Origin: Candidatus Microgenomates bacterium
GTDB lineage: Bacteria > Patescibacteriota > Microgenomatia > UBA8517 > JACQJR01
Direction: 5' to 3'
Assembly (NCBI GenBank): GCA_016204995.1
Contig: JACQJR010000001.1
Span: 473,666 to 537,665, forward strand
Length of the DNA stretch: 64,000 nt
The first letter of the stretch is position 1. Every line of letters begins with the position of its first letter. Positions 2,773-44,476 of this stretch are shown here, piece after piece. The position numbers and the translations under genes are program-made. The notes beneath the pieces were generated by a model. That model saw nothing but the letters and a program-made list of their open reading frames with translations, did no database searches and was not told where the DNA came from.

Positions 2773-2918
2773 TTTTTAAATTATTAACAAACTAGTTTAG
2801 TTATCAAGATTGATTATTAACACAAGATCGTATTTAATATACACATTGGTATTTAAGTTGGTGTAGGCTTAATTATTCAGATATCAACAGTTACTACTAC
2901 AACTACTAGTATTAATAT

Positions 2919-4025
2919 ATGCAAATATCACTATTACAAGAAGAATTAATAAAGGGGATAAATACAGTTTACCGCTTTGTCAGTACTAAATCTCAACTTC
3001 CCATTCTTTCCCATATTCTAATTTCAATTGAAAAAGGTAGAATTAGACTTTGTGGTACTAATTTAGAATCAGGTATTAATTATTGGTTAGGAGCAAAGGT
3101 AGAAGAAGATGGGCAAATAGCAGTTCCAGCCAAGATTTTAGTAGATACTATTAGTAGTTTAAAACCGGGTAAAATAGAACTTACGGAAAAAGAGGGAATA
3201 TTAACCATCTCTTCTGGTAATTCATTAATTACTATTCCTACTATTCCAGCTAATGATTTCCCCCAAGTTGATTATGAGTTATCTAAACAAAAAATAGTTT
3301 TACCTAAAAATTTACTTGAAAGTATTGTTCATCAAGTATTATTTACCGCCGGAGGCGAGGAAGGGAGAGTAGAATTTACTGGGGTGTTATTTTGGCCTCG
3401 TGATAAAGAATTAGTAGTGGTAGCTACAGACGGTGTCAGATTATCTGTTAAAAGATTAACTACCTCTCTGGATTTACCAGGAAAAATGTTAATTCCCGCT
3501 AAAATTATCGGTGAAATTAATAAAATTTTTAATAACTCTGAAGTTAAATTTAGTTTTGATGAAGATAAAAATCAGGCATTATTTGGTAATGAAGATATAG
3601 TAGTAGTTTCTAAAGTATTGGATAGCGAGAAATATCCTGATTTTGAGCGAATTATTCCTCAAGGTGTTAATGTTACCATACTAGCTGATAAAGAAGAATT
3701 ACAAAATACCCTGAAACTCTCGGCTATTTTTTCCCGAGATTATGGAGTAAGACTAGAATTTGCCAATAATGAATGTGTTTTGGTTTCGGAAAATCCCCAA
3801 ACTGGCACTCAAAAATCCACAATTCCGGTTAAACTGGAGGGTGATAGTTTAATTATCTCCTTTAACTGGCGTTTTCTTAATGACTTTTTAAATTCAGTGA
3901 GTGGTAGCGAGGTAGAATTTAAGTTTGTTAATAATATGTCGCCTGGTTTATTTATTGACCCCAAAGACAAAACCTATACTCATTTAATTATGCCCATCCG
4001 GACTAACGAAGCAGAAAGTAGTTAG
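2919..4025 (+). CDS. dnaN: DNA polymerase III beta sliding clamp
   Basis: 368 aa immediately after dnaA. Three-domain clamp-like length. N-terminus MQISLLQEELIKGINTVYRFV is typical. Confidence 0.9.
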   Translation: MQISLLQEELIKGINTVYRFVSTKSQLPILSHILISIEKGRIRLCGTNLESGINYWLGAKVEEDGQIAVPAKILVDTISSLKPGKIELTEKEGILTISSGNSLITIPTIPANDFPQVDYELSKQKIVLPKNLLESIVHQVLFTAGGEEGRVEFTGVLFWPRDKELVVVATDGVRLSVKRLTTSLDLPGKMLIPAKIIGEINKIFNNSEVKFSFDEDKNQALFGNEDIVVVSKVLDSEKYPDFERIIPQGVNVTILADKEELQNTLKLSAIFSRDYGVRLEFANNECVLVSENPQTGTQKSTIPVKLEGDSLIISFNWRFLNDFLNSVSGSEVEFKFVNNMSPGLFIDPKDKTYTHLIMPIRTNEAESS

Positions 4026-9736: not shown

Positions 9737-9739
9737 AAC

Positions 9740-9832
9740 ATTAAATTTTTAATTTCTAATTACTAATTTCTAATCAAATCCCAAATTGGGAAATTTCTAA
9801 ATCTTGGTAATTTTTTAGGTCAATTCTTTAAT
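9740..9832. repeat. Intergenic repeat copy (module A plus a partial module B) upstream of virB4
   Basis: ttaatttctaattactaatttctaatcaaatcccaaattgggaaatttctaa...ttaggtcaatt, directly abutting the virB4 start codon. Confidence 0.6.
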
Positions 9833-10982
9833 TTGCCCTAGCTTTAATGGCCAAAGGTTGAACGATTTGATTACTAATTTCTACTTGAATCGGGTCGAAT
9901 ATCAAACCTTCTTTCTCTACCATAATTTCATATTGGCCTGGCATTAAAGGGGTGGCGGTTAAAAAGTGGCCGACTTTATTAGTGCGTAAAGCCCGGACTG
10001 GCCGGCCCTCACTGTCTTTAATTTCAATAATGGCCGCTTCAATTACTTTATCTTGGGGATCTATGACTTGGCCAACAATAATGTTGGGAGCAGCCGGAGC
10101 AGGCGGAGGCACAGAGGATATTTCCAGCCTTGGTGCATTTAGACGGGGGCGGCCAGGGCCACGGCGGGGCATCACCTCTGGTCTAAAGACTGGCGATAAT
10201 GGTGAAAAAGGCATAGGCGTAGCACTGGTAAACATGGAAGGAGGATTTTGGGGAGGAGGGGGCGCCACCTGAACCGGTGCATTATAGGGTACAGTAGTCA
10301 CTTTTTGATTGAGCCAGACAGGAATTTGGGTTGGGGGTTGTGGGTTAGGAGTTATGGGTGGAGAAGGTGGGGCGTATTGGGTTTGCAGTGATGGTTCAAT
10401 CGCGGAAGTCTGTGCTGCCTGAACTGGTTCTACCTCTTGGACAGGCTGGACCGATTGGGGTGCCGATGTTGGCCGCAGGCCCTGAGCGGAGTCGAAGGGT
10501 GATTTGACAGTAGGAAATAAAGAAAGCATTTTTTGGAAAAATGATCGTTCTTTTTCTTCCAGGCTAGAAACAGCTGGTTCTTCAGAAGTAGCAGGGGTGG
10601 CTAGATAAATTTCCGCCGCTTGCTCTCCGCCAGGCGTGGCCGCTATTTGCATGACCGAGACCGGCCCGGTTTCCGGCGCAAAGGTGTCAAAAGCGGCTCC
10701 TTTTTGCCAGGCAAATTTAGTAGGAGAATAAATGGCCCGCAAAAAGGCCACAAACCACATTGATAAGGGCCGATCTTCAATCGGCAGGAAAGCAAAGGCG
10801 ACGCCTAAACCGCTAAACAAAAAAATAATTGGCCATTTGATAAAACCGGGTAAAGGCGAAGCGTAAAAAAGCAAAGCCACTAAGGCGCCACCAGCCACTT
10901 GAAAGAACTGCTTTAAGGTCATGTCGCCGACCAAACGGAACTCATAACTGGCAATATTTTGCGGTACCGGGTGCTGCTGCAT
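9828..10982 (-). CDS. Two-TM membrane protein with a proline-rich linker and a C-terminal transthyretin/CarbopepD-regulatory-like beta domain. First gene of the virB4 operon; possible VirB3-like role.
   Basis: N-terminal hairpin of 2 TM helices (GGALVALLFYASPLPGF / IIFLFSGLGVAFAFL). Long P/Q-rich low-complexity segment. C-terminal GQYEIMVEKEGLIFDP motif. Confidence 0.45.
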   Translation of the reverse strand: MQQHPVPQNIASYEFRLVGDMTLKQFFQVAGGALVALLFYASPLPGFIKWPIIFLFSGLGVAFAFLPIEDRPLSMWFVAFLRAIYSPTKFAWQKGAAFDTFAPETGPVSVMQIAATPGGEQAAEIYLATPATSEEPAVSSLEEKERSFFQKMLSLFPTVKSPFDSAQGLRPTSAPQSVQPVQEVEPVQAAQTSAIEPSLQTQYAPPSPPITPNPQPPTQIPVWLNQKVTTVPYNAPVQVAPPPPQNPPSMFTSATPMPFSPLSPVFRPEVMPRRGPGRPRLNAPRLEISSVPPPAPAAPNIIVGQVIDPQDKVIEAAIIEIKDSEGRPVRALRTNKVGHFLTATPLMPGQYEIMVEKEGLIFDPIQVEISNQIVQPLAIKARAN

Positions 10983-13120: not shown

Positions 13121-13281
13121 AGTTCCTGCTCGGGATAAATTAAGAAGTTGCTAGTTTTCTGGCTATAACAGTTGCGGCACAGCTCCGGAATTACACCGGA
13201 ATTCCTTCAACACAACTTCGTTATTGACTATGTCAAAGATAGAATTGACTGTCAAGGGGGTTTTCGTGTTAAAATGCAGAC

Positions 13282-21920: not shown

Positions 21921-22703
21921 TTAGAATCCTGGTAAACCTAAAATATCAAGTCCGATTAATTTTAACAGAAATACGGCAAAAATCAGAAATAGCAAACCGG
22001 AAATAGCAGCAGTCAATTGTTCTTTACCGCCCTTTAGCTGATCTGGATTTCCACCCGAAGTGAGAATTTTGAGGCCACCTACTAAAATTAACAAAAAGGC
22101 AATTCCTCCGGCAATACCCAATATCCATCTTAGAGTCCATGTTACAAATTCGCTAGTATTAGTTACAGGGATGCATCCAAGTGCAGTGACTATACCCTCA
22201 TTCCCATCTGGGCAATTTGTAATAGCAGCCCCTTTTCCAGCCTCGCCGACTATAGGAGGGGAATTGGGATCTCTTACTATAAAAAGATTTTCCCCTACAT
22301 ATTTATCGGTAGGATCTAAAAATTCGCTGCTTTGTTCATATAACATAAGATGCCAAACTCCTTCTGTAAAGGTGAGTGAACCGCAATCGTTGTGTACATG
22401 TGTATCGCCACAAAAGTACTGTACTACTATTTTTCCTGCTGCATCAGGTTTCTGGTTATAGAATACATTTGCCTCGGCACCCTTTTTACCATCTCTGGCA
22501 ATTCTTTTTGTTATTAAGGTATATTCCTTATCGGCTTTTAATCGGCTAATAGTAATTTTGACATTCTGGGGTGTAGTAGGCGCAAAAAGGGAGGGATTAA
22601 TACTGATAACTTGAGCATTTGCTATGCTGTAATTTTTGGGAAAAACAAATAAAATAGTCCATAACCCCAGTAGTAAATAGAGGGCCAATAAAATCTTTGC
22701 CAT
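21921..22703 (-). CDS. Pilin-like protein, paralog 8, with a roughly 190 aa Cys-containing N-terminal globular domain fused to the conserved pilin core
   Basis: 260 aa. C-terminal VGGLKILTSGGNPDQLKGGKEQLTAAISGLLFLIFAVFLL matches paralogs 1-7. N-terminal domain has CGDTHVHNDCGS and NCPDGNEGIVTALGC. Confidence 0.6.
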   Translation of the reverse strand: MAKILLALYLLLGLWTILFVFPKNYSIANAQVISINPSLFAPTTPQNVKITISRLKADKEYTLITKRIARDGKKGAEANVFYNQKPDAAGKIVVQYFCGDTHVHNDCGSLTFTEGVWHLMLYEQSSEFLDPTDKYVGENLFIVRDPNSPPIVGEAGKGAAITNCPDGNEGIVTALGCIPVTNTSEFVTWTLRWILGIAGGIAFLLILVGGLKILTSGGNPDQLKGGKEQLTAAISGLLFLIFAVFLLKLIGLDILGLPGF

Positions 22704-25390: not shown

Positions 25391-25606
25391 ATGCCGGTTG
25401 ATAATTCAGTAATTTGGCTGGCTGGTAAATTATTTGCCATTGTGGCTTTTGCTATTTATGTGATTTTTGCGGCGGTGGTAGTGCGCCAGGTCTATTTAAT
25501 GACTAAAACTATTAGTGTGGGTTTTGAGTTACCTGTTCAGACAATAGCCTGGATACACCTTATAATAGCGGTGGCGATCTTATTATTTGTGGTTGTTTTT
25601 CTCTAA
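25391..25606 (+). CDS. Small two-TM membrane protein
   Basis: 71 aa, two hydrophobic helices. One-nucleotide gap from the upstream gene. Confidence 0.35.
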   Translation: MPVDNSVIWLAGKLFAIVAFAIYVIFAAVVVRQVYLMTKTISVGFELPVQTIAWIHLIIAVAILLFVVVFL

Positions 25607-25625
25607 ACGAAATTCCCTTCACCCT

Positions 25626-27413
25626 GCCATGCTGCAAATTACAAAGATTATCGGTCGTCAAACTGATGCCTGGTCTGAAGTCTACGTTAAAAACGGTTTA
25701 GTAATTTTACTAATAGCCCCCAGCCAGGAAATTGGCAGTCCCATTTTAAAAGAGATAGTTGAGTCTAATAATCTACCTTCTACCCTCCACCATCTACCAT
25801 CCGATGATATAACTGCAATTGCTTTATTATTTAAAAGCGGTTATGTCCGCGGCTGGGTTTTAGGAAATGTTCAACTCAACATTGGCCGCAATGGCAAAAC
25901 CGGCATTTTGGTGGCTGGTAAAAAAGGTGAAGCAAAATCAGTCAATGGTCCGGCAAAGCCGGGTGATACTTTGTTGTTAACAACTACTTCTTTATTTGCG
26001 GCTGTGCCGGATAAAGAAATTACGGCTGGGTTAGTCAATCCCACCAGTGAATCTTTTTCTCAAATTGCCAGTTTTATTGGTAAGTACAATAAAGATTTAG
26101 TAGCTAGTGTTTTCGTACACCTGCCTGCGCAGGCAGGCTTACCCCGATCTAATCAGGGTCTGTCAGGCAAAAAATTTAATATCAAGGTGGTGCGGGTAAA
26201 ATTGCCTAAGTTGCCCCAAGCATCCAGACGAGCTTTCAGTAATACCATATTTTTATCTTCACTTTTCCTCAAACGCTTAAGAAGGCGGGAAATTTATATT
26301 AGCGAAAACCATCCTAAAAGAAGCGCTTTTATTATGGGAATTAGCTTTTTGGTGATGGTGACCTTAGTAGTTGTAATTGGTATGCAACGATCTTCCCAAG
26401 AAACAGCTTTAGCCAAATATCAACCATTAATGATCCAAATTGGTAGCAATCTGCAAGCAAGTAAGGATTTGGTAGAGCTTAACGCGGCTCGGTCGCAAGA
26501 GCTGGCCCGTCAGGTTAAAAATGATTTAGCAAGTCTGGCCGCGGACAGTCCTAAAAATAAAAATGTACTGGAATTTATTAATCAAACAGAAAGCGACTTA
26601 AACGACTTATTGGGGGAATATCGGGTAACCCCGTCGGTGTTGGTTGATTTAAGCTTGGTCCGGGATGGATTTCAAACGGGGGAAGTAGCCCTAGATGGCG
26701 AGAAAATCACCGTTTTGGATAACCAAAAGCGTCTATTGATCTCTTTTGACTTTGCCGGCCGTAATATGAAAGTGTTGGCTGGACCGGATACAATTCCTCA
26801 AGCCAGACTGGTAGCTATTGATGACGGTCAAGTTTTTGTTTTGGACGGTCAAAGGGTGGCTCGCATTGAGCAAAGCAGTAGTCAAACCACCGCTCGTTCA
26901 GCGATTATTCCTGAAGGCAGCTGGGGCAGAATTTCCCATCTAGCCGCTTTTACCGGCAATCTTTATCTTCTGGATTCGGCTAAAAATCAGATTTGGCGCT
27001 ATAGTGAGGCAAGTTCGGAACGGGCAGGAGCAGGTGAAGCTTGGCTAGCTAAAGATACAGTTATTGATTTAAGTAATATTAATTCCATGGCCATTGATGG
27101 ATATCTTTGGTTATTGGATAAAAATGGCCAGATCAGTCGCCTGTCGCGGGGGAATAAGGTAGGTTTTAATGTGACAGGGTTAGAAAAGGCTTGGATTACA
27201 CCTGTTGCCTTATTTACCGCTGAAAATCTGAAAAATCTTTATATTTTAGATGCTGAAAAAAAGCGGGTAGTGGTAATTGATAAATCCGGTGTTTATCACG
27301 CTCAATATTTATCAGATCAGTTAAAAGAGGCAACAAATTTAGTAGTTTCCGAGGAGAATAAAAAGATGTTAATTTTTGCCGGCAGCAAAGTCTATGAAAT
27401 TGAGCTAAAATAG
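25626..27413 (+). CDS. Hypothetical protein with one mid-protein TM helix. Start placed at the internal Met (MLQITKII).
   Basis: Long ORF. TM segment SAFIMGISFLVMVTLVVVIGM. The C-terminal half is repetitive and beta-rich (possible propeller). Carries an in-frame LPAQAGL palindromic insert. Confidence 0.45.
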   Translation, partial: AMLQITKIIGRQTDAWSEVYVKNGLVILLIAPSQEIGSPILKEIVESNNLPSTLHHLPSDDITAIALLFKSGYVRGWVLGNVQLNIGRNGKTGILVAGKKGEAKSVNGPAKPGDTLLLTTTSLFAAVPDKEITAGLVNPTSESFSQIASFIGKYNKDLVASVFVHLPAQAGLPRSNQGLSGKKFNIKVVRVKLPKLPQASRRAFSNTIFLSSLFLKRLRRREIYISENHPKRSAFIMGISFLVMVTLVVVIGMQRSSQETALAKYQPLMIQIGSNLQASKDLVELNAARSQELARQVKNDLASLAADSPKNKNVLEFINQTESDLNDLLGEYRVTPSVLVDLSLVRDGFQTGEVALDGEKITVLDNQKRLLISFDFAGRNMKVLAGPDTIPQARLVAIDDGQVFVLDGQRVARIEQSSSQTTARSAIIPEGSWGRISHLAAFTGNLYLLDSAKNQIWRYSEASSERAGAGEAWLAKDTVIDLSNINSMAIDGYLWLLDKNGQISRLSRGNKVGFNVTGLEKAWITPVALFTAENLKNLYILDAEKKRVVVIDKSGVYHAQYLSDQLKEATNLVVSEENKKMLIFAGSKVYEIELK

Positions 27414-27418
27414 TCATC

Positions 27419-27859
27419 ATGCAGATTCTTAACCGCCGCGCCCCTTACGAGTACATATTATTAGACAGAATTGAAGCTGGAATTATGCTGGCTGGCAGTG
27501 AGGTTAAATCTATCAAAAACGGCCGCTTAGATCTCTCTACCAGCTTTGCCAGAATTAATAATGGAGAGGTTTATCTGGTTAATGCCAATATCCCTCCTTA
27601 CCAGGGAGGAGTACCGGAAAATTATGATCCTAGCCGTAGCCGTAAGCTTCTTTTAAGTAAAGATGAAATCCTGTCTTGGGAGACTAAATCCAAGCAGCAA
27701 AAATTGACAATTGTGCCCACCAAAGTATATACTAAAGGACAGCTGGTTAAGGTGGAATTAGCCTTGGCCAAGCCTAAACGCCAGTTTGAAAAACGTGAGG
27801 CTAAGAGAAAAAAAGATGTGGCGCGTGAGGTAGAAAGAGAACTTAGATTACGGGGATGA
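27419..27859 (+). CDS. smpB: SsrA-binding protein SmpB
   Basis: 146 aa. RRAPYEYILLDRIEAGIMLAGSEVKSIKNGRLDL...SRKLLLSKDEI is a classic SmpB sequence. Confidence 0.9.
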   Translation: MQILNRRAPYEYILLDRIEAGIMLAGSEVKSIKNGRLDLSTSFARINNGEVYLVNANIPPYQGGVPENYDPSRSRKLLLSKDEILSWETKSKQQKLTIVPTKVYTKGQLVKVELALAKPKRQFEKREAKRKKDVAREVERELRLRG

Positions 27860-28215
27860 CAGGTTTCGACGGAGAGCACCTTAACACTATAGCAAGCCGG
27901 CTTTGATGAATAGCCGTTAAACAGCATCAAAACAAAAGCGTCAACTCAAAAGGTAACGCTCCAGCATACGCTTACGCGTCTTAAACTGCTGGCATCTTTA
28001 CTAGGCTCTCCTGTGGTTTGGATAAAGGTGTAAAAATAGCAGGATGCTTTTCAAGTTTGGTTGATCAGCAAACTTGAAGAAAAGACTTTCTGAAATTACT
28101 TAAAAATGAGTGTCAATTATCAAATTTTTAAGGACATAAAATAATTGACTAAGCTTGTATAACTATAGTATTTCGGTCTTTTCGGATGAGGGTCCAATTC
28201 CCTCCATCTCCACCA
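27852..28215 (+). ncRNA. ssrA: tmRNA (ssrA)
   Basis: 5' end GGGGATGACAGGTTTCGACGG. 3' tRNA-like end GGATGAGGGTCCAATTCCCTCCATCTCCACCA with encoded CCA. The 5' GGGGATG pairs with the 3' CATCTCC. A candidate tag ORF ends ...NAPAYAYAS-stop. Confidence 0.85.
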
Positions 28216-28592: not shown

Positions 28593-29189
28593 ATGGGAAC
28601 AAACGAATTAAGAAAAAGAAAAATTTGGCAGGATGTCAGCGGTGGAAAGGCCGGAGTTGCAGAGAAGAAATTTTTTGACATCTTCACGAAGGAGTTTAAA
28701 GGTACAAATTTTAGAATTCGCTCAAAACCGAGAGAATTCAAAGATATTTACTCAAAAATAAAACTTACCGCAGAAATATTAAAGGGTATCTATAACCCAA
28801 ACGAAACTTGGGTACACGGACTAATTCCTGACTACGCAATAGATAACATCAAGACAGGGAAAACACTGTATGTAGAGGTTAAAAGGCAGGATGGGTGGGT
28901 TGAGGGTAAACCTTGCAAAGCTGGTAGAGGAAATGCCCATGAGAGATCGAATAAACTGTTCACTCCAGGAATACTAAAATTAATGAGAGAACACGGAAAA
29001 ATAGGAAAGGACGTGTTGCCGTTCTGGGTTGTTTTTCAGGGAGATATAGCTCGCGACCCCAAAAGAGTTAGGGAAATACATTTTTGGTACGGGGATTATT
29101 CCGACAACTTCTTTTTATGGAGTAATTCTTTGGATGAGAAATCTGTAATTAATCACTTCAACAAAAAACTGAAACGCTTTTTACTTTAG
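28593..29189 (+). CDS. Putative type II restriction endonuclease (PD-(D/E)xK)
   Basis: 198 aa. LIPDYAIDNIKTGKTLYVEVKRQ gives a PD...EVK catalytic motif. Lies between the C gene and a convergent methyltransferase. Confidence 0.45.
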   Translation: MGTNELRKRKIWQDVSGGKAGVAEKKFFDIFTKEFKGTNFRIRSKPREFKDIYSKIKLTAEILKGIYNPNETWVHGLIPDYAIDNIKTGKTLYVEVKRQDGWVEGKPCKAGRGNAHERSNKLFTPGILKLMREHGKIGKDVLPFWVVFQGDIARDPKRVREIHFWYGDYSDNFFLWSNSLDEKSVINHFNKKLKRFLL

Positions 29190-29191
29190 TT

Positions 29192-29908
29192 CTACCGTTC
29201 CGTAAAAACATCTAAGCCCCACGCTGTCCATCCATCGGCTTTATTGCGAGCAAATAACTCAATTCGTTTGTGGTGAGGAAACATTTTTTCTATCGCCCCC
29301 ATCACTTCTTTTGGTTTTTCGCTGTGCTCTCCTCTCCGAACTCGCACAAGCTGTTTAATATTTCTTGCGCCTCTCGGTTTTGGTATTTTGCCGCGCTTAA
29401 ATACCAAGCATAACTCACAATTTGAAAGTGTATACTGGCCTGGATTGTGATTCATTTTGTCCCAAACAAAAGCAACGGTTTTGTAATTAAATCCCCACGC
29501 CTCGCCCAATGCGACTGCTTGGGCTAAATGAGGATTTGATGTCCACATGAACAAAAGGCAATCATTATTTGCAATCTCTTGTACTGGTAATTTTTTTAAC
29601 TCTTCCGTTTTGAGTGTTGGATACTTAAACGATGCCGAGCTTATAAATATTTTTCGGGATAAATCGATTTTATCGACGCTAGCACTACTTTTATCAAATT
29701 GCAGTTTGCCATTGTAGTCCCAAGGAGGGTCGGCGTAAATTATATCGAACTTTTGATTGGGTAATTTTGGATAAAGCTCATCCAAAGTGTTTTGCCTTGT
29801 TCGTTTCTTGGCGTCGTGTTTGTAAATTGAATAACCAGTTTGTTTTTTCGATAGACCAAACATAGTTTGTTGACTAATTTCTCTCATGTTGATAACTGTA
29901 GTATACAC
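29192..29908 (-). CDS. MT-A70-family N6-adenine DNA methyltransferase. Start is GTG at 29908 or ATG at 29887.
   Basis: Motif IV IIYADPPWDYN. Convergent with, and 2 bp away from, the endonuclease gene. Confidence 0.7.
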   Translation of the reverse strand: MYTTVINMREISQQTMFGLSKKQTGYSIYKHDAKKRTRQNTLDELYPKLPNQKFDIIYADPPWDYNGKLQFDKSSASVDKIDLSRKIFISSASFKYPTLKTEELKKLPVQEIANNDCLLFMWTSNPHLAQAVALGEAWGFNYKTVAFVWDKMNHNPGQYTLSNCELCLVFKRGKIPKPRGARNIKQLVRVRRGEHSEKPKEVMGAIEKMFPHHKRIELFARNKADGWTAWGLDVFTER

Positions 29909-32704: not shown

Positions 32705-32789
32705 GCGGAAGGGGCGAGATTCGAACTCGCGTAGGGATTACTCCCTATGGTTTTCAAGACCATCCCGTTTGGCCGCTCCGGCACCCTTC
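32705..32789 (-). tRNA. tRNA-Ser (anticodon TGA)
   Basis: Minus strand GGAAGGG..CTTGAAAAC (anticodon loop)..long variable arm GGGAGTAATCCCTAC..GCGAGTTCGAATCTCGC..CCCTTCCG. The 7 bp acceptor stem is perfect. Confidence 0.8.
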
Positions 32790-32850
32790 CTAGACTTGCG
32801 CGATAAGCGTAGCTTGGCCCTTGCGGGCTAAACCGCTCGGCCAACCCTCC
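32790..32850 (-). other. tRNA-like 5' fragment (Ser/Leu-type D-arm, GGAGGGTTGGCCGAGCGG...) directly upstream of tRNA-Ser(TGA); possible remnant
   Basis: Shares its acceptor/D-arm start with tRNA-Ser(GCT) at 33535 (GGAGGGT) and the GCCGAGCGG D-loop. Lacks a T-arm. Contains a GCCC-GCAA-GGGC tetraloop hairpin. Confidence 0.3.
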
Positions 32851-32855
32851 AATAA

Positions 32856-33116
32856 TTATTTAGCCATTCCCTCAAAAAGAAGCTTTTTGATTAAAGCTTG
32901 ATAGGGCACATCCATTTTATTAGCCGCTATTTTCAATCTCTCAATCAAAGTTTGCGGTAAGCGGATAGTAATAGGTTTGCTAGTTAATTTGAGGTTGGGA
33001 AACTTTACATTTTTGACAGAACTATAGTCAACATATTCAGTAGAATCATGAGTTTGCCAAAATTTCCTTTCCTCAGCTTCATTTTTAAAGTGGGGTATGG
33101 TTTTTAATTGTTTCAT
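32856..33116 (-). CDS. brnA: BrnA antitoxin (CopG/RHH-like)
   Basis: 86 aa. FKNEAEERKFWQTHDSTEYVDYS...RLPQTLIERLKIAANKMDVPYQALIKKLL matches the BrnA family. 4 bp overlap with brnT. Confidence 0.75.
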   Translation of the reverse strand: MKQLKTIPHFKNEAEERKFWQTHDSTEYVDYSSVKNVKFPNLKLTSKPITIRLPQTLIERLKIAANKMDVPYQALIKKLLFEGMAK

Positions 33117-33409
33117 ACTTTTTTATAATAAACCTCTCTTTCTTTTTTATTTGCTAGCCTGCCTGATATGACCCTTACTTGATTACTCCTAACAGTAAAT
33201 ACCACAAACAAGATTTTATTCTCTGTAGTTTTACCAATGGCGATAAAACGTTGCTCTTGTTCTTGATGTTTAATATCCTCTTCTATTTTAACATTTTCAT
33301 CCAAAAATATTTCTTCAGTTTCATTGGGTGTAATATTATGTTTTTGATAACTCTTATCAAGGTTGCCTTTATCCCATTCAAACCCAGAAAGTTTTTTAAA
33401 ATCAGTCAC
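33113..33409 (-). CDS. brnT: BrnT toxin (DUF497 ribonuclease toxin)
   Basis: 98 aa. FEWDKGNLDKSYQKHNITPNETEEIF...RFIAIGKT...ILFVVFTVRSNQVRVISGRLANKKEREVY matches the BrnT family. Confidence 0.8.
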   Translation of the reverse strand: MTDFKKLSGFEWDKGNLDKSYQKHNITPNETEEIFLDENVKIEEDIKHQEQEQRFIAIGKTTENKILFVVFTVRSNQVRVISGRLANKKEREVYYKKV

Positions 33410-33410
33410 T

Positions 33411-33445
33411 GTACATATTATATATGTACAAATTTATATTGTCAA
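33411..33445 (-). promoter_or_regulatory. brnTA promoter with an overlapping near-palindromic operator
   Basis: Minus strand reads TTGACA (33440-33445), 17 nt, TATAAT (33417-33422). The -10 lies inside the palindrome gtacatattatatatgtac (33411-33429). Confidence 0.45.
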
Positions 33446-33534
33446 CATATAATTTTTGTTGAATATGATCTTTCTGCTGAACAGAAACGGTTAGTTTACT
33501 AATTCCCATAATTAGTTTATAATTGGGCTGCCCA

Positions 33535-33618
33535 GGAGGGTGGGCCGGACGGTAAGGCACAGGTTTGCTAAACCTGCAGGGCGAAAGTCCTGAGTGGGTT
33601 CAACTCCCACACCCTCCG
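33535..33618 (+). tRNA. tRNA-Ser (anticodon GCT)
   Basis: GGAGGGT..CAGGTTTGCTAAACCTG (anticodon loop)..long variable arm..GGTTCAACTCC..ACCCTCCG. Confidence 0.8.
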
Positions 33619-33625
33619 CTTGTAT

Positions 33626-34147
33626 ATGGATACAACTGCCGAACAAAACAGGGATAGTACTTTGAAAAAAGAGGAGATGCTGTTTTCTTGGAAAGCTCCT
33701 GTGAGGCCATTTAAGGCTCGGGGAAGCCAGTTTTTTTCAACAGTAGTCTTGTTAGGCATTTTACTATCAGTAATTGGCTTTGTTTTAGAAGGACCGATGG
33801 TAGTAGTTCTAGTCTGGGCAGTGGTATTTTTGGTTTTTGTCTTGTTTAGCGTTCCGCCGGAAGAGATTGAATATACTATTACTAATAAAAATATCGTTAT
33901 CGCCGGTAAAAAATATGGTTTGGATGAAGTATCGCGTTTTTGGTTAACCGAAAGGTGGGGGCATAATTTATTAGTTTTTGAGATGCCAGTGAGGTTTCCA
34001 GGCAGACTAGAAATGGTAATTAATTCTGGGGATCGCGAGAAAATTAAAGAGACTTTAGAAAATTATTTAACATATGAGGAAGAACCACCGGGTATGGCTG
34101 ATAAAACAGCTAGCTGGCTGTCTAAAAAGCTATCGCTTGATAATTAA
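33626..34147 (+). CDS. Hypothetical membrane protein with two adjacent TM helices. ATG start at 33626.
   Basis: FFSTVVLLGILLSVIGFVL and VVVLVWAVVFLVFVLF helices. The track start at 33620 is a TTG abutting the tRNA. Confidence 0.4.
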   Translation: MDTTAEQNRDSTLKKEEMLFSWKAPVRPFKARGSQFFSTVVLLGILLSVIGFVLEGPMVVVLVWAVVFLVFVLFSVPPEEIEYTITNKNIVIAGKKYGLDEVSRFWLTERWGHNLLVFEMPVRFPGRLEMVINSGDREKIKETLENYLTYEEEPPGMADKTASWLSKKLSLDN

Positions 34148-34165
34148 CTTGCCCGCAAGGAATAT

Positions 34166-34239
34166 GTGCTCGTAGTTCAATTGGATAGAACACCAGGTTG
34201 CGGACTTGGCGGTTGGAGGTTCGAATCCTCTCGGGCACA
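34166..34239 (+). tRNA. tRNA-Arg. Anticodon reads GCG, which is unusual and needs confirmation.
   Basis: GTGCTCG TA GTTCAATTGGATAGAAC A CCAGG TTGCGGA CTTGG CGGTT GGAGGTTCGAATCCTCT CGGGCAC A. Cloverleaf is good; loop is TTGCGGA. Confidence 0.6.
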
Positions 34240-34329
34240 CTAAATAAATTAGGAGAGGTGCAGGGAATGGCTATCCGGACGGTTTCGCCACCGCGAAGCG
34301 GGGTCCCGCTCCGCGGGAAAAACCATCAG

Positions 34330-34411
34330 GGAGGGTTGGCAGAATGGTAATGCGCCGGTTTCGAAAACCGGTGGGCGAAAGCCCATAGAGGTTCGAGCCC
34401 TCTACCCTCCG
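34330..34411 (+). tRNA. tRNA-Ser (anticodon CGA)
   Basis: GGAGGGT..CCGGTTTCGAAAACCGG (anticodon loop)..long variable arm TGGGCGAAAGCCCATA..GGTTCGAGCCC..ACCCTCCG. Confidence 0.8.
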
Positions 34412-34429
34412 CCCTGAGTTCACCGAAGG

Positions 34430-34503
34430 GCTCTCGTAGCGCAACTGGACAGAGCACCAGCTTCCGGAGTTGGGGGTTGCGAGTTCAAATCTCGCCGAGA
34501 GCA
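34430..34503 (+). tRNA. tRNA-Arg (anticodon CCG)
   Basis: GCTCTCG..CCAGC TTCCGGA GTTGG (anticodon loop)..GCGAGTTCAAATCTCGC..CGAGAGCA. Confidence 0.75.
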
Positions 34504-34505
34504 CT

Positions 34506-38835: not shown

Positions 38836-40656
38836 ATGGACTCGCTGGAAGAAATTAAATCTAAATTGGATATTGTTAGTTTTATTTCCGAGTCTGTTAA
38901 TTTGACCCGCAGTGGCCGCAATTTTAAAGCTCCCTGTCCTTTCCATAAAGAAAAAATCGCCTCTTTTATTGTCTCGCCAGAACTGCAACTGTGGCATTGT
39001 TTTGGCGCCTGTAATGAAGGGGGGGATATTTTTAAATTTTTGATGAAAATGGAGGGGATGGATTTCGGGGAGGCCCTGCGTGAAATGGCCAAGCGTACTG
39101 GTGTCAAACTGGCGTCAATTTCTGCCACTCAAGTCAGCGAAAAAGAGCAGCTTTATAAAGTTAATTATGAGATTGCCAAGTTTTATCATTATGCTTTAAC
39201 CGGCCACGAAGTGGGGCAAAACGCTCTTTATTATTTGCAACATGTGCGCGGTTTAAACATGGAAACCATCAAAACTTTTGGTTTAGGATTTGGGCCGGAT
39301 AATTCTAACTTACTGACTCAATTTCTCTTAAATAAACGTCAATTTAGCCGACTTGATGTCTTAAAAAGCGGGGTGATGATTGAGTCTAATGGGAAGCTGG
39401 TAGATAGATTTCGCAACCGCCTGGTTTTCCCTTTGCGAGATAGTCAATCTAATGTAGTTGGATTTTCCGGCCGGATTTTGCCAAAAGACGAGAATAAGGA
39501 TTTAGCTAAATACGTTAATACCCCGGAAACGTTGGTTTATCAAAAACGGCGGCATTTGTTTGGAATTGATATTACCCACCGGGCTATTAAAGAAGCAGGC
39601 TACGTCGTAGTAGTAGAAGGAGAATTTGATTTATTAAGCATCTGGCAGGCCGGCCTGCCTGCGCAGGCAGGGATTCGCAATATAGTAGCGATTAAAGGGA
39701 CGGCTTTTACAGCCGATCAAGCCAGGCTGTTAGTTCGTTTTACTAGCGAGGCAGTTTTTGCTTTAGATAGCGATAGCGCAGGCGAGCATGCGACCAAACT
39801 CGGAATTTTGATTGCCCAGGAGCAAGGTTTAAATGTCAAGGTGGCAAGTCTGGGCAGTTTTAAGGATCCGGATGAAGCAGTCCGGAGCGATGTAGTTAAA
39901 TTCAAACAGAGGCTTGAAACGGCTGTACCGGCTTATGACTTTTTTATTGATTCGGCTTTTACTAAATTTAGCGCCACCACCGCCGGAGGCGTGGCGGCAA
40001 TTAGCAAAGAACTCTCTCCTATTATTGCCGGAATTTCCGATAAAATTGTCCAGGCTCATTACATTAGGGTGCTGGCCGAAAGGTTAAGAATTAACGACGA
40101 GGCAGTGGCGGCTCAAATTGAGGGGTTAGTGAAAAGAAACAGTCTAAGTTTGCCTGCCCTGCCTGCGCAGGCAGGGCAGGCAGGTTTAAGTGGTGAAGGT
40201 CAGAAGGAAGTCGGTAAGAGCCGGCGGGAATTAATTGAGGAACAACTGGTCAGTTTAAGTTTACAGAGAGACCCGTCATTATTAACTAATGATTCTCTAA
40301 ATGAGTTGCTGCAAACGCCCATTTTAAAACGGATTAAAGAAGAATTAAAAAAATTTATCCAGGATCATCATAAATTTACCCCTCGGCAATTTTTAGAGAG
40401 TCTACCAGCAGAATTGAAAGATGAGACTGCTTCTTTACTTCTGGTAGAAGTGGCTAATGAGGATAAAGCCAAGGGCGAATTTGATCATCTTTGCGACGAA
40501 ATAGCTACAATAGATTTAAATTCCCAGATTGAACAAGTGACCAGTTTAATGAAAGCCAAAGAGCAAAAAAGTGAAAGTTTAAGTGTGGAGCAGGCCGAGC
40601 TGGCCCGACTGGTGATTGCCCTTTCGGTGATCAGGAAGCGAAACTTGTCAATTTGA
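38836..40656 (+). CDS. dnaG: DNA primase DnaG
   Basis: CHC2 zinc finger CPFHKEKIASFIVSPELQLWHCFGAC. TOPRIM (VVVVEGEFDLLS). Located upstream of rpoD. Confidence 0.9.
   Translation: MDSLEEIKSKLDIVSFISESVNLTRSGRNFKAPCPFHKEKIASFIVSPELQLWHCFGACNEGGDIFKFLMKMEGMDFGEALREMAKRTGVKLASISATQVSEKEQLYKVNYEIAKFYHYALTGHEVGQNALYYLQHVRGLNMETIKTFGLGFGPDNSNLLTQFLLNKRQFSRLDVLKSGVMIESNGKLVDRFRNRLVFPLRDSQSNVVGFSGRILPKDENKDLAKYVNTPETLVYQKRRHLFGIDITHRAIKEAGYVVVVEGEFDLLSIWQAGLPAQAGIRNIVAIKGTAFTADQARLLVRFTSEAVFALDSDSAGEHATKLGILIAQEQGLNVKVASLGSFKDPDEAVRSDVVKFKQRLETAVPAYDFFIDSAFTKFSATTAGGVAAISKELSPIIAGISDKIVQAHYIRVLAERLRINDEAVAAQIEGLVKRNSLSLPALPAQAGQAGLSGEGQKEVGKSRRELIEEQLVSLSLQRDPSLLTNDSLNELLQTPILKRIKEELKKFIQDHHKFTPRQFLESLPAELKDETASLLLVEVANEDKAKGEFDHLCDEIATIDLNSQIEQVTSLMKAKEQKSESLSVEQAELARLVIALSVIRKRNLSI
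40152..40181. repeat. 30 bp perfect GC-rich palindrome (gcctgccctgcctgcgcaggcagggcaggc) inserted in frame in dnaG. One member of a dispersed palindromic element family.
   Basis: Exact self-reverse-complement. Encodes LPALPAQAGQAG. 18 bp core copies at 39654-39671 and 26120-26137; a degenerate copy at 9060-9077. Confidence 0.85.
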
Positions 40657-41760: not shown

Positions 41761-42900
41761 ATGATTCTTTACGAATTTGAAGGTAAAAAACTTCTCGTCA
41801 GTGCTGGCATTAGTGTCCCTAATTCTCAATTAATTGAATCAGCTTCTGAAAAAATAAATCTAACGGCACCTCTAGTTTTGAAGGCCCAAGTATTATCGGG
41901 TAAAAGAAAGGATGTCGGCGGAATAGTCGTAGTTGACGAAATCTCAAATCTCAAATCTCAAATCTCAAATCTCTTAAGAAAAGAAATTAATAAAGAGAAA
42001 GTAGAGAAAATTTTAGTGGAAGAAAAAGTAGATTATGAAGGCCCAGAATATTACATTTCAATTTCTTATGATACTGACAGTCGCGGGCCGGTGTTGACAA
42101 TCTCTGAAAGTGGCGGGACAGGTGTGGAAGAAAGGAAAGTTCAAGTTTATCCCATCTCTCCTCTTAATCCAGACCTTCCAGTCACTGATATTCCAGTGGA
42201 AATTTTACAAAAACTGGTGAATTTATTTTTTGATCAGGATATGTTACTTTTAGAGATTAATCCTTTGGTAAAAACTAAAGATAATCAATGGTTGGCTCTT
42301 GATGCCAAGATTAATTTAGATGATACCGCAAGAGATCGTCATCAAGAGTGGAATTTTCCGCCCCGGGCTGTAGCTGGTCATAGTCCTACGGAAGCAGAAA
42401 TTGCCGCTAAAAAAATTGATGAGGGTGATTATCGGGGGACGGCTGGCTCTACTTATTTTGATCTAGACGGCGACATTGCCATTCTGGCCTCAGGCGGCGG
42501 GGCCTCGCTGACCGCCATGGATGCACTGCTGACTGCCGGTGGCAAGCCGGCCAATTACACTGAATATTCTGGTAATCCGCCTCGCGAAAAAGTAACTAAA
42601 CTGACGCAGATTGTGCTATCCAAACCTAATTTGCATGGCTTGTGGATTGTAGGGGCTGTTGCTAATTTTACTGATATTTATGAAACATTGTCTGGTTTTA
42701 CTGAAGCTTTGCGGCAGGTTAAACCTAAACCTAATTATCCGATTGTGATTCGGCGGGGCGGGCCGCGAGATACAGAAGCCTTTGAAATGTTAAAAAACGT
42801 TCGCGATTTTGATTTACATATTTATGGGGCTGAAACGTCAATTAACGAATCGGCTAAAATTATGAGCAAGCTTGCTAAAACTTATGCTGCTGCTTCCTAA
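41761..42900 (+). CDS. Succinyl-CoA synthetase beta-subunit-like ATP-grasp protein (candidate citryl-CoA synthetase large subunit)
   Basis: 379 aa. ATP-grasp N-terminus (LYEFEGKKLL...VLKAQVLSGKRKDVGGIVVV). CoA-ligase domain (LLEINPLV, ILASGGGASLTAMD). Confidence 0.75.
   Translation: MILYEFEGKKLLVSAGISVPNSQLIESASEKINLTAPLVLKAQVLSGKRKDVGGIVVVDEISNLKSQISNLLRKEINKEKVEKILVEEKVDYEGPEYYISISYDTDSRGPVLTISESGGTGVEERKVQVYPISPLNPDLPVTDIPVEILQKLVNLFFDQDMLLLEINPLVKTKDNQWLALDAKINLDDTARDRHQEWNFPPRAVAGHSPTEAEIAAKKIDEGDYRGTAGSTYFDLDGDIAILASGGGASLTAMDALLTAGGKPANYTEYSGNPPREKVTKLTQIVLSKPNLHGLWIVGAVANFTDIYETLSGFTEALRQVKPKPNYPIVIRRGGPRDTEAFEMLKNVRDFDLHIYGAETSINESAKIMSKLAKTYAAAS
41943..41974 (+). repeat. Heptanucleotide tandem repeat (tctcaaa) x4.5 inside the sucC-like coding sequence
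   Basis: atctcaaatctcaaatctcaaatctcaaatctc encodes ISNLKSQISNL. Because the unit is 7 nt, adding or losing one unit would shift the frame. Confidence 0.8.
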
Positions 42901-43789
42901 AGGCGCCAAAATTATCGGTCAGGGAATTACCGGTTCTGAAGGATCGGTGGCAACGGGCTGGATGAAGGCTTATGGCACTAATTTAGTAGCCGGAGTGACG
43001 CCGGGCAAAGGCGGGCAAGTTGTGGAAGGGGCGCCCATTTTTAATACCATAAAAGAAGCGTTGGAGAAGGTTGACCCCGATAAAATCGGGGTTGATGGAG
43101 CAGTTCAATTTGTACCGCCTTTGCGCGTTAAAGATGCAGTGCTGGAAGCAATTGAAGCTGGCATCAAGTTTATTTTAATCGGGGCTGAAAAAGTACCCAC
43201 CAAAGACGCGGTTATTATTTATAGCCAAGCCCAGAAAAATAACGTTAATATTATCGGTCCGAGTTCTGTTGGTTTAATTAATCCGGCCAGAAAACTAAAG
43301 ATTGGTTCTATTGGCGGAGCCAATCCTGATCGGGTGTTTGCCGAAGGCTCTGTTGCGGTAATTTCCAAATCCGGCGGCATGACTTCAGAAATTGGTTTAC
43401 TATTAAAAAATAACGGTTTAGGGGTGTCGTGGGCGGTGGGAATTGGCGGAGATAGAATTATCGGCACTGATTTTAGCGATTTTTTACTGGCCGTTGAGGA
43501 AGATAGCGAAACACAGGCTTCAGTGATGTTTGGGGAATTAGGGGGCACTTATGAAGAAAGAGTGGCAAAACTGGTGAAGGAAGGTAAGATTACTAAGCCA
43601 GTGGTAGCTTTTATCGCCGGTGAATTTACTGCCCTGTTACCCAGCCAGGTGCAATTTGGTCATGCAGGTGCCATAATTGAAGGAAAGCGGGGTTTGCCTG
43701 ATTATAAAAGGAAAGTCTTAAAAGAAGCCGGAGTATTGGTAGCAGAAACGCTTGATGATATAGTAAAATTACTATTGCCTAATGCCTAG
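42872..43789 (+). CDS. Succinyl-CoA synthetase alpha-subunit-like CoA-binding protein (candidate citryl-CoA synthetase small subunit)
   Basis: CoA-binding Rossmann fold (KIIGQGITGSEGS). GVTPGKGG motif. Phosphohistidine loop region (QFGHAGAII). Confidence 0.75.
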   Translation: MLKLMLLLPKGAKIIGQGITGSEGSVATGWMKAYGTNLVAGVTPGKGGQVVEGAPIFNTIKEALEKVDPDKIGVDGAVQFVPPLRVKDAVLEAIEAGIKFILIGAEKVPTKDAVIIYSQAQKNNVNIIGPSSVGLINPARKLKIGSIGGANPDRVFAEGSVAVISKSGGMTSEIGLLLKNNGLGVSWAVGIGGDRIIGTDFSDFLLAVEEDSETQASVMFGELGGTYEERVAKLVKEGKITKPVVAFIAGEFTALLPSQVQFGHAGAIIEGKRGLPDYKRKVLKEAGVLVAETLDDIVKLLLPNA

Positions 43790-43795
43790 TCCCTA

Positions 43796-44476
43796 GTGCC
43801 TAATAATATGGCAAAAACAGTGACGCATCAAAATCTGCAAAGTTTATTTGGCCAAGATGATCTTTTGGCGGTCAGTCAAAGTAAAAGTTTTGTCGGCATG
43901 ATTTTTGAATTGTTATCTGAAAAAGAACCAACAGGGCAAGAACTAGCCATTTTTGAATTAATTTTGAATTTGTCAATTGACCATGGTCCAGAGACTCCTT
44001 CGGCTACAGCCGTGATTGAAGCAGCTAAAACCGGTAAAACTATTTCTGAAAGTTTGGCCGCAGGAATTTTACAAATTAATGATGTTCACGGTGGTGCCGG
44101 AGAACAGGCAATGGAACTTTTTTATCAAGTTCAAGGTGAAAAGTTAAAAGTGCAAAGTTTGGTGGAAAATTCTTTAAAAGAAGGAAAGAGGATGGCTGGA
44201 TATGGGCATAGATTGTATGAAGATATAGATCCGCGGGCGCAGTTGATTTTACAAAAACTACAGGAAGTAAATTTAGGAGAGGAATATATTAAGATTGCTC
44301 AAGAAATTGAAGCAGAATTGGCCAGTCAAAAAGGTAAAAAATTACCCTTGAATATTGATGGAGCCATTGCGGTCGTTCTTTGTAGCTTTGGTTGGGAGCC
44401 TAAACTTGCTAAATCTGTCTTCATCATTGCCCGCACTCCCGGCCTCTGTGGACAATTTTTAAATAATTCAAAATAG
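43796..44476 (+). CDS. Citrate synthase-like small protein (candidate citryl-CoA lyase)
   Basis: 226 aa holding only the C-terminal catalytic core of the citrate synthase family (SIDHGPETPS, NDVHGGAGEQAM, GYGHRLYEDIDPRAQ). Confidence 0.65.
   Translation: MPNNMAKTVTHQNLQSLFGQDDLLAVSQSKSFVGMIFELLSEKEPTGQELAIFELILNLSIDHGPETPSATAVIEAAKTGKTISESLAAGILQINDVHGGAGEQAMELFYQVQGEKLKVQSLVENSLKEGKRMAGYGHRLYEDIDPRAQLILQKLQEVNLGEEYIKIAQEIEAELASQKGKKLPLNIDGAIAVVLCSFGWEPKLAKSVFIIARTPGLCGQFLNNSK

Follow-up and report, generated by a model that had tools for sequence, protein, structure and literature searches.

An 18-bp palindrome inserted in frame in Patescibacteria genes and its probable relation to GIY-YIG nuclease cassettes

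Why does one GC-rich 18-bp palindrome, CCTGCCTGCGCAGGCAGG (P18), lie in the same reading frame inside several unrelated genes, among them dnaG and a virB4-like gene, of a Candidatus Microgenomates bacterium? The question is raised by a 64-kb stretch of contig JACQJR010000001.1, referred to here as the window. The original prediction took the palindrome for a miniature mobile element that colonises coding sequence, comparable to the palindromic elements of Rickettsia, or alternatively for the site of a DNA enzyme. The comparisons reported here make it probable, though by no means certain, that P18 is the miniature, non-coding member of a mobile family whose full-length members, of about 300 bp, have imperfect terminal inverted repeats (TIRs) that enclose the coding sequence of a UPF0213/Slx1-like GIY-YIG nuclease. 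Below, L-numbers denote loci, and P followed by four digits denotes homologous proteins.

In-frame insertion of the palindrome

P18 consists of two 9-nt inverted arms and nothing else, that is, of terminal inverted repeats alone. We searched the window for P18 with up to three mismatches and found five matches (three exact, one with a single mismatch and one with two), while dinucleotide-preserving shuffles of the window gave a mean of 0.02 matches and none of 100 shuffles gave five. The exact copies predicted in dnaG and in the open reading frame (ORF) of a 608-aa protein, and the one-mismatch copy predicted in virB4, are confirmed at their coordinates (Table 1); the two-mismatch copy in an M23-peptidase-domain ORF had been overlooked, and the total is five copies in four ORFs. 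The extended palindrome in dnaG is perfect, as had been claimed, but it measures 32 bp rather than the proposed 30 bp (40152-40181). Its layout, TTTGCCTGC CCTGCCTGC GCAGGCAGG GCAGGCAGG TTT, reads as one P18 apparently nested in the centre of another, the outer copy being the older, and it encodes LPALPAQAGQAG within a disordered linker of DnaG. In agreement with the claim of a constant (L)PAQAG frame, the first base of all five copies is at codon position 3, and the encoded peptides are LPAQAG, LSAQAG or LPTQVG. The element is also GC-rich in AT-rich DNA as described, with 78% G+C against 33-45% in 2-kb windows of the surrounding sequence. No T-tract or promoter context was found at the window copies, whose density is about 1 per 13 kb.

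Comparison with orthologues had been named as the test that could overturn the insertion reading, and its outcome favours insertion. In the TOPRIM domain of DnaG, all 24 aligned orthologues (41-56% identity) read W-QAG-I where the window reads W-QAG-LPAQAG-I. In the same alignment, the relatives P0002 and P0006 have NLPAQAG within the linker, a few residues off, which a third, P0004, lacks. The VirB4 copy sits in a hypervariable linker and is missing from the 81%-identical homologue P0121. At the nucleotide level, these filled and empty linker sites in dnaG read CAAAA-P18-AACC (L120 and L122) and CAAAAAACC (L121), within the flanks GATCAAAA-P18-AACCAG in L120, GAGCAAAA-P18-AACACG in L122 and GACCAAAAAACCAG in the empty L121. 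The difference is exactly 18 bp, and a target-site duplication is absent. L120 and L121 are sisters (85.5% amino acid identity) and L122 is the outgroup (about 75%), indicating that the same nucleotide position was either struck twice or cleanly vacated once. These results show P18 to be an inserted unit rather than conserved coding sequence, and the insertions fall in frame into unrelated protein-coding genes.

The original prediction further suggested checking whether the inserts fall in surface loops. An AlphaFold2 model of DnaG (mean predicted local distance difference test score, pLDDT, 84.7) places both copies in a loop or a disordered linker: the TOPRIM insert lies in a loop between helix 263-270 and strand 283-286, where the local pLDDT dips to 64, and the nested insert lies in residues 437-459, the sole segment with a pLDDT below 50. 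The window copies in DnaG and VirB4 are tolerated in loops or linkers. As a separate observation, the DnaG homologues P0072 and P0098 and the VirB4 homologue P0148 bear LAGLIDADG inteins, and dnaG and VirB4 genes appear to be colonised repeatedly by different selfish elements. Coincidence of P18 with an intein or homing site in DnaG was rejected, as the relatives' intein is in the zinc finger, at neither P18 site; no intein or self-splicing intron features were found at P18. In the VirB4 linker, a perfect 14-bp palindrome, CTGGAGCGCTCCAG, abuts the one-mismatch copy, and the two together encode LERSSLSAQAG, a peptide absent from the closest VirB4 homologue. The NCBI protein for this gene (P0126) has only 590 aa and begins just downstream of the palindrome; since relatives (74-81% identity) span 95-100% of the whole ORF, the start codon may have been miscalled on account of the insert.

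P18 is 100% intact in the dnaG genes of L120 and L122 despite only 47% third-codon-position identity, which suggests DNA-level constraint, and its sequence is identical across very divergent lineages. Both facts would suit a selected functional site, such as a signal for DNA uptake, a site that a protein binds or cleaves, or a regulatory hairpin, kept for its usefulness and not mobile. Such a site is very unlikely to be the explanation, as copies arrive as clean 18-bp insertions and not by point mutation, decayed copies persist, the density in the window is low, and the copies lie inside essential protein loops without a common context, T-tract or promoter.

The TOPRIM site offers an opening to yet another origin. 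Orthologous empty sites already carry GCAGGCAGG where the window has GCAGGCCGG, and the window layout is GCAGGCcGG followed by CCTGCCTGC and then GCAGGCAGG. This is the arrangement that fold-back template switching at a pre-existing GCAGGCAGG would leave if P18 arose de novo, with a direct-inverted-direct triplication adding 18 bp. In addition, arm-like sequence stands directly beside the insert in 6 of 258 flanks, the TOPRIM site of the window included, compared to 0.44 expected. Most sites, however, have no arm-like flank, including the proven filled/empty pair in which P18 lies between CAAAA and AACC. Fold-back is refuted as a general mechanism and is extremely unlikely as the origin of P18, although it could hold for the TOPRIM copy alone.

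Over 124 P18 sites, the three frames occur 74, 27 and 23 times, with frames assigned by the longest ORF, a rule that undercounts LPAQAG and that missed, for example, the L009 site, which is truly in a YqgF/RuvX-like protein. In low-GC loci with an ORF of at least 150 aa, the readings LPAQAG, PACAGR and CLRRQ stand at 44:11:3, whereas in low-GC loci with an ORF shorter than 80 aa, which are likely non-coding, the frames stand at 8:8:6. The frame constancy that had been predicted therefore holds for all window copies and prevails in long ORFs, but it does not extend outside coding DNA. Because the bias is found only in long ORFs, the constant frame is mainly survivorship of the least harmful reading, and the bias looks like the result of selection. 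The length of 18 bp together with the frame bias suggests that the insert is translated.

Distribution and size classes

The palindrome had been described as an element of this genome's genes; it is real there, but it is found across Patescibacteria. A scan for the exact 18-mer in a collection of one genome per species shows P18 in at least 119 stretches. About 70 of these, as counted from record titles, come from named Patescibacteria lineages, including WWE3, Microgenomates groups, Parcubacteria/Paceibacterota groups, Saccharibacteria and Dojkabacteria, among others. Further stretches belong to low-GC metagenome-assembled genomes (MAGs) labelled Bacteroidota or Gammaproteobacteria, where the taxon labels of some MAGs may be wrong, and a minority lie in GC-rich genomes, where a chance match is plausible. 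The idea of a mobile palindromic element in coding sequence thus stands as regards in-frame insertion and needs widening, since P18 also lies outside coding DNA and in other genomes. The assemblies with P18 come from many unrelated projects and assemblers. There is virtually no chance that P18 is no feature at all, that is, a conserved coding motif, a chance match or an assembly or adapter artefact. Nothing was found in favour of this; against it stand the chance expectation in the window, the lack of the insert in orthologues, the existence of decayed copies and the codons, which are always identical, and an artefact would not give an in-frame bias. A phage reservoir was rejected as well: the 25 viral-contig matches are mostly in contigs of 58-67% GC, with few in low-GC contigs, and most of them are for that reason probably due to chance.

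Across the P18 loci, flanking direct repeats of 4 bp or longer, which would mark a target-site duplication, are not in excess, and neither a palindrome extension nor a longer conserved flank was found around the copies. The sole flank preference is a purine at -1 and a pyrimidine at +1, which is kept in non-coding copies (40 of 54), and the residues preceding the insert are mostly D, G or N. In an all-against-all BLAST of the flanks, longer shared repeats are limited to tRNA-fragment contexts and to a small number of Bacteroidota MAGs. In the Bacteroidota cases, Sphingobacteriales bin43 (L033, L071, L076, L082, L012/L101) and Saprospiraceae (L004/L043), P18 is the core of longer, mostly non-coding repeats with perfect palindromes of up to 36 bp and repeat units of 130-185 bp. 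A second GC-rich palindrome, TCCGCC(AGCT)GGCGGA, recurs in L066, L081, L096, L104 (4962-4977), L106 and L111 and is often followed by a T-run, which makes it terminator-like; in L009 (about 6912-6926), a variant of it precedes a free-standing GIY-YIG ORF by 9 nt. It may represent a sister palindrome family.

Other GC-rich perfect palindromes, such as TCCGCCAGCTGGCGGA, are also in excess in the loci (26 observed, compared to 2-8 in shuffles). This excess is what one would expect if stable GC-rich hairpins survived DNA degradation and were ligated into nicks or breaks without any nuclease, the GIY-YIG cassettes described below having acquired the same hairpin. The absence of a target-site duplication, the coincidence of the element boundaries with the ends of a perfect stem, a ComF-like competence protein encoded in the window and the sharing of one sequence among several phyla all speak for this route. 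We nevertheless consider it improbable, because it leaves unexplained the dominance of one specific sequence, the match of both ends and of the reading phase to the cassettes, and the tight adjacency to GIY-YIG genes.

A metagenome scan for two arms 1-30 nt apart returned 120 loci. The centre is CG in 70 of them, giving a 20-bp perfect palindrome (P20); it is C or G in 22 (P19) and CA or TG in 5. In long ORFs, P20 reads LPAGRQ followed by G, V, A or E, with a net gain of 7 residues, and its hosts include AtpA, PheS, PurH-like and UvrC-like proteins. P18 and P20 never co-occur among 13 multi-copy loci, and the unmixed centres indicate that each variant is copied faithfully and not assembled anew. 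In L253 (987-2469), four P20 copies lie in about 1.5 kb of AT-rich non-coding DNA, and two of them are in inverted repeats of about 40 bp that bracket a 1.3-kb one-gene segment in the manner of a composite element. Three models of how the arms come together were rejected. Nested forms as the usual outcome disagree with the metagenome scan, in which such forms are seldom seen and centres of 2 nt and 1 nt prevail; the addition of one arm per 3' end of a break disagrees with single arms that are not in excess and with the asymmetric P19, which breeds true; and a full-length element made of separated arms disagrees with the first 119 loci, in which solitary arms are at about chance level.

GIY-YIG nuclease cassettes with the same termini

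One HsdR gene in L070, from a MAG labelled WOR-3, holds four related inserts. Besides P18 there are a decayed form of 21 bp, a 39-bp sequence (CCTGCCTGCcgcgccgcttcactttgcggcGCAGGCAGG, translated as LPAPQSEAARQAG) that equals a pair of terminal repeats, and a 300-bp in-frame block. The block is directly preceded by an exact arm, is bounded by the same arms as P18 and reads LPAPRPGQ, a GIY-YIG domain and LSAARQAG; Pfam places GIY-YIG at residues 138-206 of the protein, splitting the HSDR_N domain. A homology search with the block matched 28 proteins. Conserved borders, (D/N)LPAPR and (AA)RQAG, recur among them, as an alignment of 17 homologues shows for LPAPR and RQAG, and the flanks are unrelated, including HsdS (between PND and EPAS), the HsdM C-terminus, HsdR, MsrB and DUF899, among others. 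In P0248 and P0255, the cassette is followed at once by a 13-aa mini element, LPAPPSEATRQAG.

Six independent cassettes share their DNA termini (left CCTGCCTGCGCCGCG, right CGCGGCAGGCAGG). All six begin with CCTGCCTGCG and end with GCAGGCAGG, and the encoded protein is no known transposase. The cassettes measure about 300 bp and lack start and stop codons; each begins at codon position 3 and finishes at position 2, in the same phase as P18. They are read through as host-LPA(PRP..)-nuclease-(..AAR)QAG-host. The shared termini and phase indicate that P18 equals the left 9 nt plus the right 9 nt of a cassette (LPA+QAG), with 10 nt from the right end in P19 and 11 nt in P20; the 39-bp forms retain more of the cassette ends than P20. 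The alternative proposal, that P18 is a site for a DNA enzyme, is probably correct in part, as the arms form the ends of cassettes that encode a GIY-YIG nuclease.

When 1.84 billion representative proteins were searched with a profile, 23,583 matched at E<=1e-3, and 178 of these reached E<=1e-30. Most of the best 150 matches are proteins of 200-1100 aa in which the match of about 95 aa is internal, and both LPAP-like and RQAG-like borders are present in 66 of 143 proteins checked from these 150. Pfam analysis of ten hosts shows HsdS, DUF1156 methylases, a PD-(D/E)XK nuclease, trigger factor and an RluA-type pseudouridine synthase among them, as well as a Type III methylase, an arginyl-tRNA synthetase and an Eco57I-type (Type IIG) enzyme; NUMOD DNA-binding modules are absent from the Pfam-checked cassette proteins. 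Among solved structures, EF2693 and BH0048, both UPF0213 proteins, come nearest to the cassette nuclease; T4 endonuclease II and SLX1, the latter a structure-specific nuclease, match weakly. P18 itself encodes no nuclease, while the related cassettes and neighbouring ORFs match PF01541. The only relevant precedent for the cassette that a literature search returned is a remark on HsdR of Methylococcus capsulatus, which contains one inserted Slx1-like GIY-YIG domain; an 80%-identical homologue lacks the domain, whose insertion was hence judged to be recent (Dunin-Horkawicz et al., 2006; PMC1564403). This insert is very probably the same kind of cassette, but it was reported as an isolated curiosity, and termini, reading-phase rule, host range and mini-derivatives are not described there. 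The search returned nothing on the 18-mer, LPAQAG or palindromic in-frame insertions in Patescibacteria, and LPAPRP gave only unrelated papers; the parent cassette element appears to be previously undescribed.

Palindromes and GIY-YIG genes also meet at tRNA fragments. In five Parcubacteria-type loci, P18 splits a duplicated 5' tRNA-Gln fragment between its nt 10 and nt 11, and an intact tRNA-Gln lies downstream of the fragment. Alongside lies a small GIY-YIG ORF in L027, L109 and L038, and an ORF with HNH-like Cys/His motifs and no Pfam match in L037. The same architecture is found with a tRNA-Thr-like fragment (L093), tRNA-Asn and P20 (L223), tRNA-Ser and P20 (L230 and L233) and a T-arm fragment (L210); in L230, tRNA-Ser(1-16)+P20+(17-26) repeats stand on both sides of the GIY-YIG ORF. 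No palindrome-split tRNA fragment was seen within the 64-kb window. The palindrome in the tRNA fragment lies 13-14 bp from the cassette boundary in L027, L223 and L037 and 6-11 bp in other loci, a spacing consistent with a nuclease cutting near its own element, and the recurrent position in the tRNA fragment is compatible with a preferred cleavage site. The free-standing GIY-YIG ORFs of Patescibacteria-type loci share homology with the core of the cassette (hhalign probability 96.5%), and 9-60 nt upstream of the start codon they usually carry P18, P20 or another GC-rich palindrome.

The best reading of these results is that P18 is a minimal non-autonomous derivative or an excision footprint of a GIY-YIG element, and for its movement we infer the following route. 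The nuclease, supplied by a free-standing gene or by a domain embedded in a host protein, would recognise the arms, or the hairpin or cruciform that they form, and would cut at their outer edge, releasing a full cassette or a bare palindrome. Host ligation or end-joining would then insert the released fragment at a break in another place, preferred targets would be arm-like sequences and a purine-pyrimidine step, and selection would keep only the copies that read LPAQAG in tolerant loops. In a close variant, each P18 would be the defined scar of an excised full-length cassette. The enriched arm-like flanks, the nested copy and the tRNA-fragment spacing fit arm recognition and outer-edge cutting.

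P18 could also be nothing but a footprint, immobile and marking a cassette that was cut out about 9 nt inside each end to leave an in-frame LPA+QAG scar. The composition of P18, P19, P20 and the 39-bp forms, in which the left end of a cassette is joined to 9, 10, 11 or more nt from its right end, speaks for this, as do the short forms standing with a full-length cassette in the one HsdR gene, and the filled L120, empty sister L121 and filled outgroup L122 fit a gain followed by an exact loss. Yet the window has five short copies and no cassette within 64 kb, the discrete size classes breed true within a locus, non-coding arrays exist (for example, the four P20 copies in 1.5 kb), and the nested copy requires a second event at the centre of the first. 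A footprint alone is rather unlikely, and copy number, type fidelity and the non-coding arrays favour mini-elements mobilised in trans over scars.

Several points weigh against the derivation of P18 from GIY-YIG cassettes. No contig placed securely in Patescibacteria showed a full-length cassette with these termini: L070 bears the label WOR-3, and a taxon label is absent from the other cassette loci. No GIY-YIG gene was found within the 64-kb window, and we know of no GIY-YIG enzyme that has been shown to act as a transposase. The proximity of GIY-YIG ORFs to palindromes (7 of 13 ORFs in the loci are within 500 bp, compared to about 1.6 expected) speaks for the derivation but is a rough statistic from loci ascertained by the presence of the palindrome. 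In coding DNA, P20 adds a net 21 nt (AtpA, PheS), indicating that the junctions are not always exact. In addition, the identity of the 18-mer across very deep lineages needs a cause, possibly conserved-enzyme constraint, horizontal re-seeding or repeated insertion.

Known systems, neighbouring features and significance

Rickettsia palindromic elements (RPEs) are in-frame palindromic repeats in unrelated, often essential genes and are translated as an extra surface peptide (PMC10969869). P18 is likewise palindromic, in frame and in unrelated, often essential genes, so the analogy drawn at the outset is a good functional one, but P18 is not a member of the RPE family. RPEs are about 100-150 bp long, occur in Rickettsia only and have no identified autonomous partner, whereas P18 and its variants are 18-20 bp long, occur in many Patescibacteria classes and other hosts and have termini common to a nuclease cassette; no sequence relationship between P18 and RPEs was seen. 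Like a miniature inverted-repeat transposable element (MITE), P18 keeps only the TIRs of a longer protein-coding element and outnumbers its parent. It differs in the absence of a target-site duplication, in a size several-fold smaller than that of described MITEs, in a putative parent that encodes a GIY-YIG nuclease and not an insertion sequence-type transposase, and in the translation of this parent in frame with its host gene.

The cassette resembles GIY-YIG homing endonuclease genes as a selfish GIY-YIG gene invading conserved genes (tRNA, restriction-modification, aminoacyl-tRNA synthetase). I-TevI-type enzymes cut at a distance, which the 13-14 bp between palindrome and cassette boundary recalls. 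The cassette sites, however, are many and unrelated, which would argue against classical homing, and the cassette has TIRs, which homing genes lack, and a UPF0213/Slx1-like domain. Since no intron or intein removes the cassette, its nuclease stays as a host-protein domain, unlike homing endonuclease genes.

GC-rich palindromes of fungal mitochondria are dispersed in AT-rich genomes, beside tRNA genes and sometimes in coding regions, and are suspected to be mobile; the Neurospora PstI palindromes have an 18-bp core, CCCTGCAGTACTGCAGGG, and the yeast GC clusters are 30-50 bp long with short target duplications. P18 is similarly short and GC-rich, in AT-rich genomes and near tRNA genes, but the fungal palindromes are organellar and of another sequence, and to our knowledge no nuclease partner has been established for them. 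Repetitive extragenic palindromic sequences (REPs) and REPINs are extragenic hairpins with a GTAG head that Y1 (HUH) REP-associated tyrosine transposases (RAYTs) are thought to move in trans. The likeness lies in the hairpin repeats and in the presumed role of a hairpin-recognising, single-copy nuclease that moves them in trans; the difference is that most P18 copies are intragenic and without GTAG, and RAYT-like genes are no consistent partner. A RAYT/IS200-like transposase as the mobiliser was rejected, since such genes are near palindromes in only two loci and the one in L179 has its own GTAG-type REPs. The RAYT/IS200-like (Y1_Tnp) ORFs beside palindrome hairpins lie at 7479-7985 in L070, where the adjacency looks coincidental, and at 2428-3526 in L179, where the ORFs themselves are riddled with GTAG-type REP hairpins. 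DNA uptake sequences (DUS/USS) occur about once per kb, are built by point mutation and are lineage-specific, whereas P18 has 5 copies in 64 kb, arrives as whole insertions and has the same sequence in many classes.

The features of the window are collected in Table 1. Its start is probably the replication origin; dnaA and dnaN lie at the left end, and the cumulative GC skew climbs throughout the window. Two of the five window palindromes, both decayed, fall in a gene set resembling a type IV secretion system (T4SS) or conjugation machinery. Three neighbouring genes are predicted to form an ATP-citrate-lyase or citryl-CoA-like set, which would be uncommon in a Patescibacteria bacterium with a small genome. 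A MunI-like type II restriction enzyme beside an MT-A70 family methyltransferase has no relation to the palindrome sequence. Type IIS/IIB restriction-site geometry (BspMI-like, NmeDI-like) was rejected as an explanation of P18; it offers numerical coincidences only, and the restriction-modification pair of the window is MunI-like.

Table 1. Palindrome copies, their host ORFs and other features of the 64-kb window
Feature	Coordinates	Strand	Remarks
P18, 2 mismatches (CCTACCTGCGTAGGCAGG)	6064-6081	minus	read as LPTQVG; decayed; in M23-peptidase-domain ORF
P18, 1 mismatch (CCTGCCTGCGCAGACAGG)	9060-9077	minus	read as LSAQAG; in VirB4/TraG-like ATPase ORF
P18, exact	26120-26137	plus	read as LPAQAG; in 608-aa ORF
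P18, exact	39654-39671		LPAQAG, DnaG residues 273-278, TOPRIM domain
P18, exact	40158-40175		DnaG linker; centre of the 32-bp palindrome 40151-40182
Arm-like 9-mer GCAGGCCGG, pre-existing	39645-39653	plus	encodes conserved TOPRIM residues QAG; directly 5' of the insert
Perfect 14-bp palindrome	9078-9091		abuts one-mismatch P18
Host ORF, M23-peptidase-domain protein	4971-7241	minus	756 aa
Host ORF, VirB4/TraG-like ATPase	7238-9736	minus	832 aa
Host ORF, 608-aa protein	25587-27413	plus	no Pfam family matched
Host ORF, DnaG	38836-40656	plus	two P18 copies
dnaA and dnaN	1378-4025
T4SS/conjugation-like set	4971-10982 and 21921-22703		M23 peptidase protein, VirB4/TraG ATPase, PrgI-like protein, T4SS pilin
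AdoCbl-II riboswitch	13145-13218	minus
SmpB, then tmRNA	27419-28215
MunI-like restriction enzyme and MT-A70 family methyltransferase	28593-29908
Five-tRNA cluster	32705-34504		three Ser, two Arg
Three neighbouring genes	41761-44476		ATP-grasp/citrate-binding, CoA-ligase and citrate-synthase C-terminal domains

A wider reading, which we put forward only tentatively, is that the palindromes and the LPA-(GIY-YIG)-QAG cassettes together make up a class of prokaryotic mobile element that has so far escaped notice. In it, a nuclease gene that has TIRs but lacks start and stop codons would live as a translated domain of host proteins, be moved without target duplication by a structure-specific Slx1-like nuclease and spawn the smallest known non-autonomous elements (18-20 bp, present as LPAQAG or LPAGRQ peptides in essential Patescibacteria genes). 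If this is true, selfish DNA can inhabit essential genes without an intron or intein, in frame and in loops, and its resident form would be either a nuclease domain that works or a scar of 6 residues that does no harm. Mobile DNA would reach down to a size of 18 bp, GIY-YIG/UPF0213 proteins would gain a concrete role, and a small nuclease recognising a defined 18-bp hairpin could serve as a tool. The inserts are a possible source of error for alignment and start-codon annotation, natural evidence of insertion-tolerant loops in DnaG, AtpA, PheS, ArgRS, RuvX and others, and markers of recent genome dynamics in uncultured Patescibacteria.

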